Assembly: GCA_043743715.1 (NCBI GenBank)
Contig: JAYTWK010000055.1
Span: forward strand, 10,242-74,241
Length of the DNA stretch: 64,000 bases
Source of the DNA: a bacterium
GTDB lineage: Bacteria; Patescibacteriota; Minisyncoccia; Phycocordibacterales; UBA6899
Reading direction: 5' to 3'
The notes under the pieces are model-generated. The model had not been told where the DNA came from, did not search any database, and was given only the letters and a program-made list of their open reading frames with translations. Positions 45,991 to 51,009 of this stretch are shown piece after piece. The translations under genes and the position numbers were made by a program. Within the stretch, counting starts at the first letter, position 1. Each line of letters starts with the position of its first letter.

Positions 45991-46908
45991 TTATGCTCGT
46001 GAATTCCGTTCTATTGTGATTTCCCCAGTCTTCTTGGCGAGCACAAATACATTGTCGCGCAGATTTATCGGAAGCGCGAGTTTACGCAGAAGCGGTGTGT
46101 CCGATACGCGCGCCAGAGTTTCCCAGAATGCGAGTTCCTGCCAAGCCGCGAGGGTCTTGAACACATATGCCGGAGAGAATTTCTTGCCAATCTTCTTCAC
46201 CTCAAGCACCTCAAATCCGGTGTCACGCAAGAGCATGGTGAGATTGCCCGGAGCATAATAGTAGAGATGCTCGGGCGGGACAATGAGATGCCATCGCTTT
46301 CCGAGCACCCTGGCCCACAGACTGGACCTATCGACCGTGTTTATTGCGAGCATACCGCCGGTGGGGAGCATACGGTTGAGCGCGAGGAGATATGCGCGAG
46401 GATCATCCACATGCTCGAGCACATCCCACAGTGTCGCGGCGTCAACTTGCACATTCATTTCCCCGGTAATACTCCCTTCGGTCATCTCGTGTCCGCGTGA
46501 ACGAGCGACGCGCGCAGCATAAGGTGATATCTCACTGCCGTACGTCTTCCAGCCTTCGCGCTTTGCGATATCAAGAAAATATCCGGTCGCCGCACCGACG
46601 TCGAATACACGCTTGCCGGGCGCAAGTGCTTCAAGCTTCTTCAGGTACAACTCGAATACTTCGCGCATCGGCTCTTTGTCTTTATCGTAGTCAGTGTAAC
46701 CGGCGCTTCGCTTTTCTTTGTCAGTGCCATCATTTTTAAAATAATTCTCACCGTATATGCTTGCGAGATCTTTCGGGATAGGATGCACAAAGGTAAAATC
46801 GCACTGCGTACAGTCATAGAGCTTGTGTCCGTTCTTCTCGCAAAAAAATCCGGTCTCACTGGAGCCGCAGATATGGCATACCGGCAAGTCCACAGGTGTT
46901 TCTTCCAT
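45991..46908 (-). CDS. Class I SAM methyltransferase with an N-terminal zinc-ribbon domain.
   Basis: 305 aa. CHICGSS...CTQCDF (4-Cys ribbon), RVFDVGAATGYFLD, WDVLEHVDDP. Confidence 0.65.
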   Translation of the reverse strand: MEETPVDLPVCHICGSSETGFFCEKNGHKLYDCTQCDFTFVHPIPKDLASIYGENYFKNDGTDKEKRSAGYTDYDKDKEPMREVFELYLKKLEALAPGKRVFDVGAATGYFLDIAKREGWKTYGSEISPYAARVARSRGHEMTEGSITGEMNVQVDAATLWDVLEHVDDPRAYLLALNRMLPTGGMLAINTVDRSSLWARVLGKRWHLIVPPEHLYYYAPGNLTMLLRDTGFEVLEVKKIGKKFSPAYVFKTLAAWQELAFWETLARVSDTPLLRKLALPINLRDNVFVLAKKTGEITIERNSRA

Positions 46909-46911
46909 ATA

Positions 46912-47631
46912 TTACTTTTTATAACCGAGACGCTGAGCGAATAGTCGTAGTGGTGTCTTCAGGCCCTCGCGCACGATATGATGCGAGATCTTCGACTCTC
47001 CTTCGCGGCGACTTTTGAAGATGATGGGGACCTCTTTGGTGCGTGCATGCGCATGATGTACCGCATGGAATTTAAACTCAATCTGATATGCATAGCCCGA
47101 TGAACCAAGCTCGTCGAATCGCATATTGCGCAATGTATCAGTACGCACACCGATGAATCCTGCGGTCAAATCATTAATACCACTCGCGGTGAAGAATCGC
47201 GCATACATATTGCCGTACTTACTCAGCATATATCGCCACTTTTCCCAGTTCTCGACTCCCCCACCCGTCACATAGCGCGAACCGACGACGAGGTCATGCT
47301 CGTCGAGTGCTTCGAGCATGGGAGCGAGATACGACGGATCATGCGAACCGTCCGCGTCCATCGTGAAGACATAGTCATAGTCGCCATGTTTCAAGACTTC
47401 ACGTATCGCGTGCTTATATGCGACACCAAGTCCTTGCTTGCCGGGGCGCTTCAGAATTGCGAGTTGCGGATAGCGAGTGACCATCTCGTCAACCACCTCA
47501 CCTGTTCCGTCCGGAGAATTATCATCGATCACCAATATCTGCGCTTCAGGAAGCACGTCGAAAATCTCGGGAATGATATCCTGCACATTCTCACGTTCAT
47601 TATAGGTCGGCAGGAGTACGATATAGCGCAT
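46912..47631 (-). CDS. GT2 polyprenyl-phosphate mannosyl/glycosyl transferase (DPM1-like, soluble form).
   Basis: 239 aa. RYIVLLPTYNERENV, LVIDDNSPDGT, FTMDADGSHDP. Confidence 0.8.
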   Translation of the reverse strand: MRYIVLLPTYNERENVQDIIPEIFDVLPEAQILVIDDNSPDGTGEVVDEMVTRYPQLAILKRPGKQGLGVAYKHAIREVLKHGDYDYVFTMDADGSHDPSYLAPMLEALDEHDLVVGSRYVTGGGVENWEKWRYMLSKYGNMYARFFTASGINDLTAGFIGVRTDTLRNMRFDELGSSGYAYQIEFKFHAVHHAHARTKEVPIIFKSRREGESKISHHIVREGLKTPLRLFAQRLGYKK

Positions 47632-47655
47632 ATGCTTCGCCCACTATAGCAAAAA
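47621..47655. repeat. 35-bp direct repeat, copy 1 (the start codon and 5-prime UTR of the GT2 gene).
   Basis: ATATAGCGCATATGCTTCGCCCACTATAGCAAAAA is identical to 48649-48683. It covers codons M-R-Y-I and the upstream leader on the minus strand. Confidence 0.75.
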
Positions 47656-47747: not shown

Positions 47748-48263
47748 CTACTGAGGAGAAGTTGAAGCTATCGCTTGGGCCAAGTTCGCGCACGGCGACA
47801 AATCCCGTTGACCAAAGCCGACCAAAATATCGTAAAACGCACGAATAGATTGATGTCGGGTAGCTGTGTTCGCAGTCAGGTCACCGGTGTTGAAATTAAG
47901 AAGAGCGCGGGTTGCATTCCTGGTCGCACAATACTGTCTCGACATCAATGTGAGGGCGCTGCTTCTGTTTGCTGGCGTTGGTGACGCGACCATGATCTGA
48001 AATATCTGTGCGTTTGCCATTGCCAGCGGAAAATCTGATGTGCCGCCGAACTGCTTCGCAAGCACCCGCTCCACATCATCTCGCACGCCATTATTATTTG
48101 AATCCACTCCAGCTAGTGTTGCGTCATTCAACGCTGAGGGTGGTTCAGGTGGGACAGCAACTCCATTTATCATAGTGGTATTACTCATTGTGTTTGCAAC
48201 AATAAAAACAGCAAGTGCAGTGACTGCAGCACCCACAACTAACCACGGAACGATCTTATTCAT
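47748..48263 (-). CDS. Signal-anchored secreted or periplasmic protein of unknown function.
   Basis: 171 aa. N-terminus MNKIVPWLVVGAAVTALAVFIV, near-identical to the N-terminus of 48749-50266. Confidence 0.4.
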   Translation of the reverse strand: MNKIVPWLVVGAAVTALAVFIVANTMSNTTMINGVAVPPEPPSALNDATLAGVDSNNNGVRDDVERVLAKQFGGTSDFPLAMANAQIFQIMVASPTPANRSSALTLMSRQYCATRNATRALLNFNTGDLTANTATRHQSIRAFYDILVGFGQRDLSPCANLAQAIASTSPQ

Positions 48264-48645
48264 CCTAAAATTCTATCACATTAGAACCAAACGCTATAGT
48301 ATGTCCATTTTCCAATGTACGTTTTAATTGCTATAGCGGATAAAACGTACATTCTACTTTTTCGCGGACTTCAGTTTTTTGGAATTCTTTTTGAGCCAAG
48401 CAGCGATAGGGGCGAGTTCGAGCTTGTCAGTAACGACCGAAAGGACAAATTGCTCTACGTCAGGATTTGTTGCAGTAAACACATACCCATTCGTCTCCAA
48501 GAAACGCCCCGCAAGTGCGAAGCTGGTGCGCTTATTGCCGTCGACGAACACATGATACTTCGCAGTACTTTCTAAGTAGCAAGCGGCTTTCATGAATACA
48601 TCGGGATACACATCCTTGCCTCCAAAGGCAGTCTTTGGACGCTCG
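48225..48645. repeat. ~420-bp direct repeat, copy A (5-prime end of the secreted-protein gene, the intergenic region and the Doc toxin core).
   Basis: About 85% identical to 50228-50642, including the block TATAGTATGTCCATTTTCCAATGTACGTTTTAATTGCTATAGCGGATAAA(A)CGTACATTCTACTTTTTCG. Confidence 0.7.
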
Positions 48646-48659
48646 ATGATATAGCGCAT
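48354..48659 (-). CDS. Doc (death-on-curing) Fic-family toxin with an intact core but a replaced N-terminus.
   Basis: 101 aa. Fic/Doc motif HVFVDGNKRTSFALAGRFLETNGY. The first 4 codons and the upstream 30 nt are identical to the start of the GT2 gene (the 35-bp repeat). No adjacent antitoxin. Confidence 0.7.
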   Translation of the reverse strand: MRYIIERPKTAFGGKDVYPDVFMKAACYLESTAKYHVFVDGNKRTSFALAGRFLETNGYVFTATNPDVEQFVLSVVTDKLELAPIAAWLKKNSKKLKSAKK

Positions 48660-48683
48660 ATGCTTCGCCCACTATAGCAAAAA
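48649..48683. repeat. 35-bp direct repeat, copy 2 (fused to the Doc core).
   Basis: Identical to 47621-47655. Confidence 0.75.
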
Positions 48684-48748
48684 CCGAACGGAAGCGAAAA
48701 TTGGGTGCCGTAGTGGATGGATTTCGAAACTGCTTGGTGGGCAAATGA

Positions 48749-50266
48749 CTATTTGAGACTGAGTTTATATATCGAAACAAGGGTTGAAGATCCTACTTCC
48801 TTTGAAGTTTCAAAATACAGGATGCCAGAGGTTGATTTGTCCTCAACGAAGTTCCTTACATCATACTCTCCACTTATTTTTTGCCCATCGTAAATGAGAC
48901 TACCTTTTGCGGTTGGTTGCGGTTGGTCAAGGGTGATGTATGCAAGTTTCCCATTAACAGCTTTTAGAGAGAAGGGATTTATGATACCTGTTAGTTCTTT
49001 CTGATCATAAAAGGTGTGATATTCTCTGGCCGCACTGTCATATATTGAATATTCAAGCTTCCCAGCAATTTCACTAAATTGAGGATGGCTATCCATCTTT
49101 GTCTTCACGACTAATCGATTCCCGAGGAAAAGTCGTGTCTCTTTGGAAGCATAGTCCGTTACGAGGTAGGCTGGCTTCCCTATGACCTCAGTCAGTTTTT
49201 CAATACTGTTACCGGATTGAATCATGTTGCCATCAAAGTAAAGTTGCTGAGAATCCTCTGCTGTTTTACCACTAATGTAAGCGAGCTTCCCCGAAATTTT
49301 TCTTATCTCAATATTATATGAGCCGTCAGCAGTAATTTTTTTTCCATCTTCAAAAAGTGTTTGAGTGGTAGGATATTCGCTTCCTATAAATCCGCCAATA
49401 TCCTTAGGTGGGGTTTTATCGACATAGTTGAAAGTGGTATACGCAAGCTTACCATTATCCTCCTCTACGTAGTCTGGTATTTCAGTGGCAGAGATGACTG
49501 CTCCCCCATTGTAAAAAAGAGTATCAATATCAGCAGAAAAATCATGAATAATATACGAAATCCCTTTGCTGGTCTTTTGAAAGTTCTTTATGTCTTGCCC
49601 AGTTACAATTTTCTTTCCATCAAAGAGTAATGTCTTCTGTTTTGACGTTTTATCATAGACGGTATAAGCAAGTTTCCCGTCTACTTCTTTAATGTCAAAC
49701 ATATCAGTCAAACTTGTAACAGGAGCGGTCGCGAGCATCTCTGTACCATAATAAAGTGAGTGGGCTAAGGATTTTGTGTCATTACTGATATACATAAGTT
49801 TCCCAGCCAATTCCTGCATAATAAAAACATTTTCAGCAATCTTTGCCTCGTTCAAGAATAAAGAATTACCAAGATTATGTTTTATGGTGTATGCAATGTC
49901 ACCAGATGGAAGGAGGACGGATTCACCGAGATAAGTACCGGTACGGTCATTTGATTCCGCGAGTGTTTTAGCAACCTTTGCGTTGATAGTTAGTGTCTTT
50001 ACTAAAATTGGCTTCGACGATTGAGGGATACCCGCGACTGGATCAGCTGTACTTGTGCTACTACGATCAGTTGAGGTTGACACGGACGAACCCGCAAGAC
50101 TCTGCGTAACTGCTATAGTCCCTGATGCTTCTGGTTCAAGAAGTGAGCTCGAAGCAATATTACTCACAATAATGGTGGGATGATTTGTTAACAGATATCC
50201 TCCGACAAATACTGCGAGCACCAGCACCGCACCCCCGGTCACCAGCCATGAAACGATTTTATTCAT
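48749..50266 (-). CDS. Signal-anchored secreted protein with about 8 tandem ~38-aa repeats (beta-propeller-like).
   Basis: 505 aa. N-terminus MNKIVSWLVTGGAVLVLAVFV. Recurring units L(F/Y)(F/Y)DG-K-I...(D/N)GKLAY(T/I), e.g. DGKLAYTVYD, NGKLAYTTFN, SGKLAYISGK, GKPAYLVTDY, AGKLEYSIYD, NGKLAYITLD. Confidence 0.5.
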   Translation of the reverse strand: MNKIVSWLVTGGAVLVLAVFVGGYLLTNHPTIIVSNIASSSLLEPEASGTIAVTQSLAGSSVSTSTDRSSTSTADPVAGIPQSSKPILVKTLTINAKVAKTLAESNDRTGTYLGESVLLPSGDIAYTIKHNLGNSLFLNEAKIAENVFIMQELAGKLMYISNDTKSLAHSLYYGTEMLATAPVTSLTDMFDIKEVDGKLAYTVYDKTSKQKTLLFDGKKIVTGQDIKNFQKTSKGISYIIHDFSADIDTLFYNGGAVISATEIPDYVEEDNGKLAYTTFNYVDKTPPKDIGGFIGSEYPTTQTLFEDGKKITADGSYNIEIRKISGKLAYISGKTAEDSQQLYFDGNMIQSGNSIEKLTEVIGKPAYLVTDYASKETRLFLGNRLVVKTKMDSHPQFSEIAGKLEYSIYDSAAREYHTFYDQKELTGIINPFSLKAVNGKLAYITLDQPQPTAKGSLIYDGQKISGEYDVRNFVEDKSTSGILYFETSKEVGSSTLVSIYKLSLK

Positions 50267-50642
50267 CCTAAAATTCTACCACGTTAGAGCCGAACGCTAT
50301 AGTATGTCCATTTTCCAATGTACGTTTTAATTGCTATAGCGGATAAACGTACATTCTACTTTTTCGAAGACTTCAGTTTTTTGGAATTCTTCTTCAGCCA
50401 GGCGGCGATGGCGGGAAGTTCGAGCTTGTCAGTAACGACCGAAAGAACGAAGCATTCAACTTCATCGTTTGTTGCCTCAAAAATATATCCGTTGGTTTCC
50501 AAAAAACGCACCGCCGGCGTAAACTTGTGGGCATATTTTCGTCCACGAACACATGGTACTTCGCAGTACTTTCTAAATAGCAGGCTGCTTTTATAAAGAC
50601 ATCGGGATACTTGTCTCTCCCTCTCCAAAGGCGGTCTTTGGA
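50228..50642. repeat. ~420-bp direct repeat, copy B.
   Basis: See copy A. Contains the degraded Doc copy. Confidence 0.7.
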
Positions 50643-50760
50643 CGCTCTATGATGGAGCGCAGGAGTTCGATCTCGCGCACGCCATGCGCGCCGCTTGTGG
50701 CGTCGACAATGCGCGCATGGATTACCAGCACTTCCGTTTCTGTCAGATATCGAAAGGTCA
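50356..50760 (-). pseudogene. Doc-toxin pseudogene with a frameshift and a destroyed Fic motif.
   Basis: The N-terminal 39 codons (MTFRYLTETEVLVIHARIVDATSGAHGVREIELLRSIIE) are intact at 50644-50760. A 1-nt deletion then turns HVFVDGNKRT into HVFVDENMPT and shifts frame. The C-terminal part is readable in another frame (ORF 50356-50628: ...RFLETNGYIFEATNDEVECFVLSVVTDKLELPAIAAWLKKN). Confidence 0.6.
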
Positions 50761-50766
50761 TCGCTG

Positions 50767-51009
50767 TTATTTTTTTGAAAGCGCGTCGGGTGCGGGGCGG
50801 TAGCGCCTGATGAAGCTATCGGTCCAATCTACAACCTCACGATCAATATCATCGCCAGAAACTGCCTCAATCACCATACGTTTCGACTTCTTATCGACTA
50901 TCACATTCACCTGGTCGCCAATAGCAAGACCAAGCTCCTTGAGAGAGCCTTTTGGAATATTGACCGCAGCGGACGAACCGACTTTGAGTACTTTTTGAGT
51001 CATGCTCAT
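50767..51009 (-). CDS. AbrB/MazE/SpoVT-type antitoxin (Phd-like partner of Doc).
   Basis: 80 aa. Swapped-hairpin motif KVLKVGSSAAVNIPKGSLKELGLAIGDQVNVIVD. Sits immediately upstream of the Doc pseudogene. Confidence 0.65.
   Translation of the reverse strand: MSMTQKVLKVGSSAAVNIPKGSLKELGLAIGDQVNVIVDKKSKRMVIEAVSGDDIDREVVDWTDSFIRRYRPAPDALSKK

Follow-up and report, generated by a model that had tools for sequence, protein, structure and literature searches.

Doc toxins phosphorylate EF-Tu and thereby arrest growth, and this arrest is relieved by the antitoxin. In the Phd–Doc system of bacteriophage P1 (PDB 3K33, 3DD7, and 3KH2), the antitoxin gene is located immediately upstream of the toxin gene, and the toxin combines the Doc fold with the catalytic motif HxFx(D/N)(A/G)NKR. 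Pairing of AbrB with Fic/Doc proteins in type II toxin–antitoxin (TA) modules is over-represented more than three-fold (Makarova, Wolf and Koonin 2009, PMC2701414). For these pairs and for the Phd–Doc system of Enterococcus faecalis (PDB 9VZC, PMC13034048), the C-terminal helix of the antitoxin is predicted to lodge in the concave face of Doc.

The locus described here is a type II module of an AbrB/MazE antitoxin and Doc, a Fic-fold kinase toxin, in the genome of an ultra-small Patescibacteria (CPR) bacterium that has not been cultivated. It lies within a 64,000-nucleotide stretch of contig JAYTWK010000055.1 (hereafter the window), and all genes discussed are on the minus strand. Two Doc copies are present, one beside the antitoxin (Doc-B) and one truncated (Doc-A). 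As in P1 Phd–Doc, the antitoxin gene is immediately upstream of a toxin gene, and the Doc fold and motif are recognizable. Full-length relatives of the window Docs align with residues 2–119 of P1 Doc, and the predicted model of Doc-A superposes on P1 Doc (3K33/3DD7) with TM scores of 0.64–0.75. Unlike in P1, where the antitoxin has the Phd/YefM fold, the window antitoxin has an AbrB/MazE β-barrel DNA-binding domain, the toxin adjacent to it is a pseudogene, and the sole copy with an intact motif has no counterpart to residues 1 to ~33 of P1 Doc.

We favor the explanation, with a probability of roughly 0.55, that this locus is a TA module rearranged by recombination and now a mosaic in decay, reflecting ordinary gene decay and no new regulatory arrangement. 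Under this explanation, a segment from a diverged allele or paralogue, and not a recent copy of Doc-B, would have arrived by illegitimate and probably homology-facilitated recombination. A single in-frame illegitimate join would have cut off the N terminus of Doc-A, and inactivation of the toxin beside the antitoxin would have left the antitoxin orphaned.

The antitoxin and the direct repeats

The antitoxin gene (50767–51009) is intact and encodes an 80-aa protein whose residues 7–50 form an N-terminal SpoVT/AbrB-like DNA-binding domain matching PF04014 (MazE_antitoxin) with 32.8 bits (cut-off 24.7), in agreement with the original prediction that an AbrB/MazE-type antitoxin is retained here. 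Its best NCBIfam match is TIGR02609 (doc_partner), which covers profile positions 2–73 of 74 with a score of 33.7 bits, under the 55.9 cut-off. The gene ends 5 nt before the start of Doc-B. The C-terminal tail (YRPAxDALSKK) is common to the closest relatives, loci L001, L002, L022, and L023, and the form YRPALxALxKK also occurs in about a dozen small ORFs upstream of Doc at other loci. About 36 of the 43 Doc loci checked in CPR and other genomes have this operon layout, with a Doc gene of normal length (127–140 aa) directly after a small ORF of ~76–104 aa, and most of these small ORFs are visibly AbrB-like by sequence. Comparison with orthologues yields dN/dS values of 0.03–0.05, indicating strong constraint on the antitoxin overall. 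The window protein also carries lineage-specific changes, including an L>P replacement in its C-terminal toxin-binding tail.

Two direct repeats of ~420 bp and ~85% identity, each joining a Doc core to the 5′ end of an MNKIV gene, had been proposed for this locus. Local alignment of copy A (48243–48658) with copy B (50246–50661) gives 352 identical columns of 411 (85.6%) and confirms these components in both copies, along with a ~90-nt spacer that holds a 13-bp hairpin. The spacers, IG1-B (50267–50355, hairpin 50355–50317) and IG1-A (48264–48353, hairpin 48353–48314), are 94% identical, and IG1-B includes promoter-like/RBS sequence for the gene that follows. A generic scan for sigma-70 promoters and terminators returned fewer matches than it did in shuffled sequence. 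Identity between the copies is uneven, at 78% in the core and 92% across the Doc 3′ end, IG1, and the MNKIV start (Fisher p = 1.8e-4), and the two share identical stretches of 55 nt and 36 nt.

The gene that follows Doc-B (48749–50266) encodes a 505-aa membrane-anchored protein that begins MNKIVSW and contains repeated GKLAY motifs (repeat family D4); Pfam and NCBIfam profile searches with it gave nothing above cut-off. The gene that follows Doc-A (47748–48263) encodes a 171-aa membrane-anchored protein (MNKIVPW), and DNA-level homology between the two genes is confined to approximately the first seven codons. Homologues of the 171-aa protein (47–58% identity) reside in other contexts, for example, beside an SLT_2 transglycosylase, and the contigs with such homologues that were checked for Doc, antitoxin, and glycosyltransferase (GT) genes gave no signal. 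The possibility that this gene is a usual travelling partner of Doc was rejected, since its homologues adjoin other genes. A family-2 GT gene (46912–47631; 239 aa; PF00535, 95.5 bits) adjoins the rearrangement.

The two toxin copies

Doc-B (50356–50761) is the original full-length toxin gene and is now a pseudogene. Its tblastn matches fall in three frames because of a net insertion of 2 nt at ~50616–50622, which produces a stop codon at 50593–50591, plus a 1-nt deletion at ~50516–50520, for a net change of +1 over both indels. The codons of the Fic motif (50555–50529) specify HVFVDENMP instead of HVFVDGNKR, so the catalytic motif is absent, and neither fragment of the gene matches a Pfam profile. 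The original prediction correctly judged this toxin to be dead and identified the 1-nt deletion, which exists but is not the sole indel. The further proposal that this deletion turns the motif into HVFVDENMPT does not hold, because the change from GNKR to ENMP results from three substitutions (GGC>GAA, AAG>ATG, and CGC>CCC), all of which are upstream of the deletion. Even if resequencing were to remove both indels, copy B would still be without the catalytic K and R. A functional type II module, with an intact toxin and antitoxin that are co-transcribed and autoregulated, is therefore not found here, as the adjacent toxin is a pseudogene.

Doc-A (48354–48659) is a clean ORF for 101 aa, comprising MRYI followed by Doc residues from ~36 to the end. 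As originally described, it has a perfect Fic motif (HVFVDGNKR, 48554–48528), which conforms to HxFx(D/N)(A/G)NKR, has lost its N-terminal ~35 residues, and has no adjacent antitoxin. Its start corresponds to residues 32–36 of full-length relatives (132–137 aa). No small ORF is found directly upstream; its upstream neighbors are the duplicated GT promoter and the 505-aa gene, with the antitoxin 2.1 kb upstream, and thus Doc-A is not part of an antitoxin operon. Searches for the fusion of MRYI to Doc elsewhere by exact look-up of the Doc-A protein gave no gene positions; its best matches were 57% identical in GTDB species representatives and 63% in JGI metagenomes, and the 31-mer spanning the junction was absent from viral contigs.

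The strongest alternative, which we consider unlikely, is that Doc-A is an active toxin core neutralized in trans by the orphan antitoxin and that Doc-B was silenced to restore the balance of toxin to antitoxin. Consistent with this possibility, Doc-A exceeds the curated thresholds of the profiles Fic (PF02661, 39.5 bits; cut-off 24) and DOC_P1 (TIGR01550, 50.1 bits; cut-off 38.65), with the latter match spanning profile positions 50–120 of 122 only. In addition to the intact motif, its retained part has 8 of 8 invariant and 15 of 15 near-invariant positions, and the fusion preserves the reading frame from a working start. Substitutions on the Doc-B branch (8 synonymous and 9 non-synonymous) include three of ~9 non-synonymous changes that alter the catalytic residues G, K, and R, as expected from selection against toxicity. 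The intact antitoxin, with its low dN/dS, would likewise be expected if some toxin still needed neutralizing, which is a point against the decay explanation. Also counting against decay are the clean 101-codon ORF with its perfect motif and conserved positions, the inheritance of an in-frame start from a conserved gene, and the mostly synonymous substitutions on the Doc-A branch (12 synonymous and 7 non-synonymous).

Several observations argue against an active Doc-A. The protein lacks the equivalent of residues 1–31 of the full-length relative P0002, which contribute helix α1 (H6–20) and the conserved GGxHGxR loop (G22, G25, and R27). The near-invariant residues L10, H13, G22, G25, R27, and L31 are thereby lost, and the complete six-helix Doc fold is not present. 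With the same alignment, AlphaFold confidence falls from a pLDDT of 95.1 (pTM 0.88) for full-length P0002 to 80.6 (pTM 0.74) for Doc-A, for which the Fic loop and what remains of the N terminus have the lowest values (67–71). Conservation and modeling thus suggest that Doc needs helix α1; the Doc literature searched yielded no experiments on N-terminally deleted Doc. Truncated forms are also rare, as only 2 of 120 homologue clusters, Doc-A and P0037, start at this point. P0037 is a truncated Doc of 94 aa, and it is possibly another frameshifted gene because it is preceded, at a distance of 45 nt, by an ORF fragment of 31 aa.

Moreover, a genuine toxin driven by a GT-type promoter and uncoupled from the antitoxin operon would pose a risk, and the L>P change affects the antitoxin tail that would have to bind it. 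The signal of selection is also older than the truncation. Because purifying selection between copies A and B predates this event, it is uninformative on the truncated form, and we rejected dN/dS as proof of Doc-A maintenance, given that A/B divergence predates the join and the branch counts are too small.

An active Doc-A neutralized in trans is conceivable but unsupported. The more specific proposal that an α1-less protein with about three-quarters of the fold, rewired through in-frame capture of the promoter and start of a housekeeping GT gene, is still an active kinase held in trans by the orphan antitoxin, with the cis toxin silenced, is slightly more doubtful again. No positive evidence emerged for the original view of Doc-A as domesticated or trans-regulated. 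Most likely, Doc-A is a fragment left as a by-product, one that would fold poorly and would be no canonical toxin, and the antitoxin would be an orphan that has yet to decay. If so, annotation of Doc-A as a functional toxin by its motif alone would be unwarranted.

Origin of the truncated copy

The start of Doc-A is an exact copy of the start of the GT gene, a feature that is new relative to the original prediction. The first four codons of Doc-A (MRYI) and the 24 nt upstream (48648–48683), which carry a captured GT promoter/RBS, match the beginning of the GT gene itself, from its promoter/RBS through codon four (47620–47655), at 36 of 36 nt. Up to 48748, the remaining sequence ahead of Doc-A can be aligned with the spacer between the 502-aa gene and the GT gene of L002, and no repeats were found to be shared by the spacers upstream of the antitoxin and of Doc-A. 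Between the 505-aa gene and the GT gene is thus a 1,028-bp segment that contains a 5′-truncated Doc core, a hairpin spacer, the 171-aa membrane-protein gene, and a second GT promoter/start. This segment is absent from L002, where the order is antitoxin, Doc (137 aa, intact), 502-aa gene, and GT. The order at L001 is Elp3, antitoxin, and Doc, whereas L023 has Doc, the hairpin, and the GT promoter with no intervening gene; the duplication is absent from all three of L002, L022, and L023. The arrangements at L002, L001, and L023, without the segment, are taken as ancestral.

At the left junction, GT codon 4 is fused in frame to Doc codon ~36 at the microhomology ATGCGCT..ATC, and therefore Doc-A consists of MRYI and Doc from residue ~36 to the end, preceded by the duplicate GT promoter/RBS. 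Because the N terminus was lost through this single join, decay is the wrong description for copy A, and the earlier notion of reciprocal decay of the two toxins does not stand. The same 36 nt in L002 differ by three substitutions and one indel, so the perfect identity within the window makes the junction appear evolutionarily young, although these 36 nt may be under promoter constraint. A search for a donor locus of the 1,028-bp segment found none.

Doc-A and Doc-B differ with a dS of 0.94 and a dN/dS of 0.11, whereas the flanks of the window and L002 differ with a dS of 0.44 (the 505-aa gene and its 502-aa orthologue) and 0.58 (GT). The dS between Doc-B and the Doc gene of L002 is 1.76, which indicates that the locus is a mosaic. 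By these distances, A and B are to be regarded as old relatives, neither of which is a recent copy of the other. A simple recent tandem duplication was rejected because identity varies along the repeat and dS is high.

An old tandem duplication in situ, running from the Doc core to the GT start, with later replacement of the second membrane-gene body, is a doubtful alternative history that would be compatible with any functional reading. With a duplicated unit running from Doc codon 36 to GT codon 4, it predicts exactly the layout seen, and it fits the 10 derived changes that A and B have in common relative to four outgroups, as well as the high identity of IG1 (94%) and of the promoter copy (100%). 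However, it requires at least three extra events, among them gene conversion to homogenize IG1 and the promoter, and loss of the segment from the L002 lineage via the 36-nt repeats. The A–B dS also exceeds that of the flanks, yet L002, L022, and L023 lack the duplication, and the 171-aa gene is a member of a distinct family that occurs at other sites.

Far less probable is the retention of Doc-A for a non-toxin role, for example, as a retargeted, catalytically competent mini-Fic protein, or by binding the antitoxin as a decoy or co-repressor. The intact ORF and motif and the retained antitoxin would suit such a role, but the searches gave no evidence that the truncated form is conserved in another genome, and the junction is young. 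Least probable of all is an assembly artefact in which two strain variants (Doc-505-GT and Doc-171-GT) were concatenated and the copy B indels are consensus errors: the contig is a single record from a metagenome assembly, related contigs differ from one another at this locus, and the exact 55-nt and 36-nt runs could confuse an assembly graph, but the junction microhomology of only ~7+3 nt is far under assembler k-mer sizes so that reads must span it, the copy B motif is destroyed by substitutions as well as indels, and one error cannot give a net +1 frame change.

Significance and comparison with known systems

If rearrangement and ordinary decay are the correct explanation, the locus illustrates at good resolution the erosion and scrambling of TA loci in CPR genomes, with the toxin inactivated first and the antitoxin retained, and with alleles shuffled where Doc and GT genes flank a variable hotspot of surface-protein genes. 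This outcome would be useful for annotation and unsurprising. If Doc-A were active, helix α1 of Doc would be dispensable and a minimal Doc catalytic core would be defined, and the locus would represent a naturally split TA module whose toxin is uncoupled from the antitoxin operon. Such a result would hold moderate interest for TA and Fic specialists.

The proposed rearrangement resembles homology-facilitated illegitimate recombination, with microhomology-mediated joins, which reportedly takes place in naturally transformable bacteria. In both, one junction is at a short microhomology, homologous sequence (here, the GT promoter/gene) marks the opposite side, and a foreign segment is gained along with a duplicate of resident sequence. 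Unlike in those cases, the mechanism at the window is deduced from sequence alone.

Like the AbrB–Fic/Doc pairs and the Phd–Doc system of E. faecalis, the locus combines a DNA-binding antitoxin of the β-sheet/AbrB type with a Doc toxin. It differs from the AbrB–Fic/Doc pairs in that the module is broken: the adjacent toxin is dead, and a truncated copy with a foreign promoter resides 2 kb downstream. Another parallel is the decayed TA locus L011 from Candidatus Taylorbacteria RIFCSPLOWO2_01_FULL_45_15b, in which the AbrB antitoxin is also intact and Doc is split by a frameshift, with the motif K substituted (GNER). L011 has neither the second, truncated copy nor the promoter capture that distinguish the window, but it shows that toxin decay with antitoxin retention recurs.

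Gene order and damage to the Doc-B copy

Every gene between 45.9 and 52.8 kb of the window resides on the minus strand, and gene identities were confirmed by using Pfam and NCBIfam. The Doc homologues, together with the names of their sources, assign the organism to the Patescibacteria/CPR. Along this strand, the locus carries an Elp3-like radical-SAM gene (52777-51125; 550 amino acids; Radical_SAM and Radical_SAM_C), a perfect 58-bp palindrome (51102-51045), the AbrB/MazE antitoxin gene (51009-50767; 80 amino acids), the Doc pseudogene Doc-B (50761-50356), the hairpin-bearing spacer IG1-B, a gene for a 505-amino-acid membrane-anchored repeat protein (50266-48749), spacer IG2, the truncated Doc gene Doc-A (48659-48354), spacer IG1-A with the same hairpin as IG1-B, a gene for a 171-amino-acid membrane-anchored protein (48263-47748), spacer IG2', a family-2 glycosyltransferase gene (GT; 47631-46912), and a methyltransferase gene (46908-45991). 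At the boundary of the last two genes (46908-46912), a TAA stop separates them, unlike in the related contig L002 (2341-3552), where they form one continuous ORF of more than 404 amino acids (...GYKKKYMEETP...).

The Elp3-like gene lies directly upstream of the toxin-antitoxin (TA) module, a synteny common to the related contig L001. The palindrome between it and the antitoxin gene, which is unique within the window, has 29-nt arms and no spacer (RNA fold of -54.8 kcal/mol, z = -9.1). Because the equivalent spacer in L001 spans only 37 nt, the palindrome is a lineage-specific, presumably young insertion; it might act as a terminator or an insulator, or have arisen by template switching. The 505-amino-acid protein (also L002 734-2242) contains at least six copies of a GKLAY-type repeat and has no Pfam or NCBIfam family. 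Compared with L002, its gene exhibits a dN/dS of 0.64 in the first 100 codons versus 0.08-0.1 in the middle, which suggests a variable surface protein. The 171-amino-acid protein and its homologues (P0122-P0133) are small and either secreted or anchored, and the family that they form lacks annotation. Its conserved motif, INGxxVPPEP...AGVDSNNNGVRDDVER, is similar to a calcium-binding loop of the EF-hand or dockerin-like type. The homologues have unrelated gene neighbours; in contig L005, for instance, one follows an SLT_2 lytic transglycosylase.

The duplicated Doc module of the original prediction is real and was correctly spotted: pairwise alignment yields two direct repeats (48243-48658 and 50246-50661) that are identical at 352 of 411 positions (85.6%). 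That prediction attributed both the frameshift and the motif loss in Doc-B to a 1-nt deletion. The deletion is present (~50516-50520) but is not the sole damage, as a net +2 insertion at ~50616-50622 leads to a stop at 50593-50591, and because of these two indels the homologous reading is spread over three frames. Nor did the deletion alter the motif, which changed from GNKR to ENMP through substitutions (GGC>GAA, AAG>ATG, and CGC>CCC) located upstream of it. Nevertheless, the proposal that this toxin is dead holds; even if both indels stemmed from sequencing error, Doc-B would still be dead, its motif having been destroyed by substitutions.

Origin of the Doc-A segment

Doc-A is a clean ORF of 101 codons that, as predicted, retains a perfect Fic motif (HVFVDGNKR) and is missing its N terminus, starting at the position of residue 32-36 in full-length relatives. 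The ORF cannot extend further because a TAG occurs in frame five codons before the ATG. Nucleotides 48648-48683, which cover codons 1-4 (MRYI) and the preceding 24 nt, duplicate the GT gene start (47620-47655) exactly over 36 nt, and the join occurs at a microhomology (GT side, ATGCGCT(AT)ATC; Doc side, (A/C)TGCG(C/T)TC(C/A)ATC). The supposed N-terminal remodelling is thus a single in-frame illegitimate join, as a result of which the Doc core now follows a second copy of the promoter, RBS, and start codon of GT.

The codons for ERPKTAFG in Doc include a hairpin, (G)TCCAAAG-ACTGC-CTTTGGA, which is roughly 8 nt away from the recombination junction. This 20-mer is found at 48621-48640 and 50624-50643, and also at L003 1848-1867 and L005 3354-3373; an identical 20-mer forms the intergenic hairpin 3' of 171-family genes in contigs L003-L007. 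The coincidence may reflect chance, palindromes being low-complexity, or else DNA at this hairpin may be prone to breakage or recombination.

Orthologues reside on four short ENA contigs (74-82% protein identity), all four of which encode a full-length Doc (132-137 amino acids). Close relatives are contained in ENA assemblies ERZ27313622-ERZ27315426 and ERZ28573511-81. The order is Elp3-antitoxin-Doc in L001 and antitoxin-Doc-502aa-GT in L002. The latter aligns with window positions 50990-48645 and then skips to 47656-46418, and thus it is without the 1,028-bp segment carrying Doc-A and the 171-amino-acid gene. The spacer 5' of Doc-A can be aligned from end to end with the L002 spacer between 502aa and GT, whereas that 5' of the window GT has only the proximal promoter in common with it. 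In contig L022, Doc is followed by a 505-like gene. Contig L023 (807-1068) represents a third structural allele, in which Doc and the GT promoter are separated by a hairpin but by no gene; this 25-bp perfect hairpin (-44.5 kcal/mol) is related to the window IG1 hairpin and precedes the GT promoter by ~190 nt. Given these differing contents, the Doc-GT interval is a polymorphic hotspot.

Doc-A and Doc-B differ over 92 codons by a dS of 0.94 and a dN of 0.10 (dN/dS of 0.11), and they have 10 derived changes in common relative to four outgroups. Between the window and L002, dS is 0.44 for the 505-amino-acid gene, 0.58 for GT, and 0.83 for the antitoxin, versus 1.76 for Doc-B and the L002 Doc; the history of the Doc segment differs from that of its flanks. 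Identity between the repeats is also uneven (78% in the Doc core versus 92% further on, p = 1.8e-4). The 92% stretch comprises the Doc 3' end, IG1, and the first 7 codons of the membrane-protein genes, beyond which identity is at background level. The IG1 sequences of L002 and L022 are unrelated, and the 36-nt promoter repeat is perfect in the window, where L002 has 3 substitutions and an indel. Together, these data speak against a simple tandem duplication of recent date and favour a scenario in which a diverged Doc-171 segment was imported through illegitimate recombination, probably homology-facilitated, and the junction is young. A possible alternative route is an old duplication followed by gene replacement and conversion.

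Prospects for Doc-A function

We consider a recombination-scrambled, decaying TA locus to be the best reading. We give roughly one chance in five to the less likely alternative, in which Doc-A serves as a truncated toxin that is regulated in trans. In favour of activity, neither the ORF nor the motif is disrupted, the retained part of Doc-A keeps each of its 8 invariant and 15 near-invariant positions, synonymous changes predominate on the Doc-A branch, and the antitoxin gene is both intact and under constraint (dN/dS of 0.03-0.05). However, the selection signal between Doc-A and Doc-B is older than the join, Doc-A does not sit behind the TA promoter, and four replacements in the antitoxin are specific to this lineage, among them L>P in the C-terminal tail. 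The 31-35 missing residues include helix alpha1 (H6-20 in the model of the full-length relative P0002), a loop with near-invariant G22, G25, and R27, as well as L10, H13, and L31. With the same 120-sequence alignment, AlphaFold pLDDT and pTM values were 95.1 and 0.88 for P0002 but 80.6 and 0.74 for Doc-A, whose model is weakest in the N-terminal remnant and the Fic loop. A start at the Doc-A position is present in only 2 of 120 homologue clusters, and ~36 of 43 Doc loci from GTDB and JGI have a normal-length Doc (127-140 amino acids) with a small ORF, recognisably AbrB-like in the majority of loci, ending at or just before its start. An assembly error is improbable, since assembler k-mers are much longer than the microhomology at the junction.

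Comparison with known toxin-antitoxin systems

TA modules that pair AbrB with Fic/Doc are already known, and this combination is over-represented (PMC2701414). Doc has a Fic fold in which two core helices are already absent, and the C-terminal helix of Phd substitutes for them (PMC2686095). The Doc-A model matches the P1 Doc structures 3K33 and 3DD7, and its family assignment is secure. Compared with a complete operon-linked Doc toxin, Doc-A lacks two of the features tested, namely a complete fold and an adjacent antitoxin, the latter absence having been anticipated. Toxin decay with antitoxin retention has a second case in Candidatus Taylorbacteria RIFCSPLOWO2_01_FULL_45_15b (L011 2311-2950), where an intact 77-amino-acid AbrB antitoxin accompanies a Doc gene that is split by a frameshift into ORFs of 45 and 86 amino acids and in which the motif K is replaced (HVFIDGNER).
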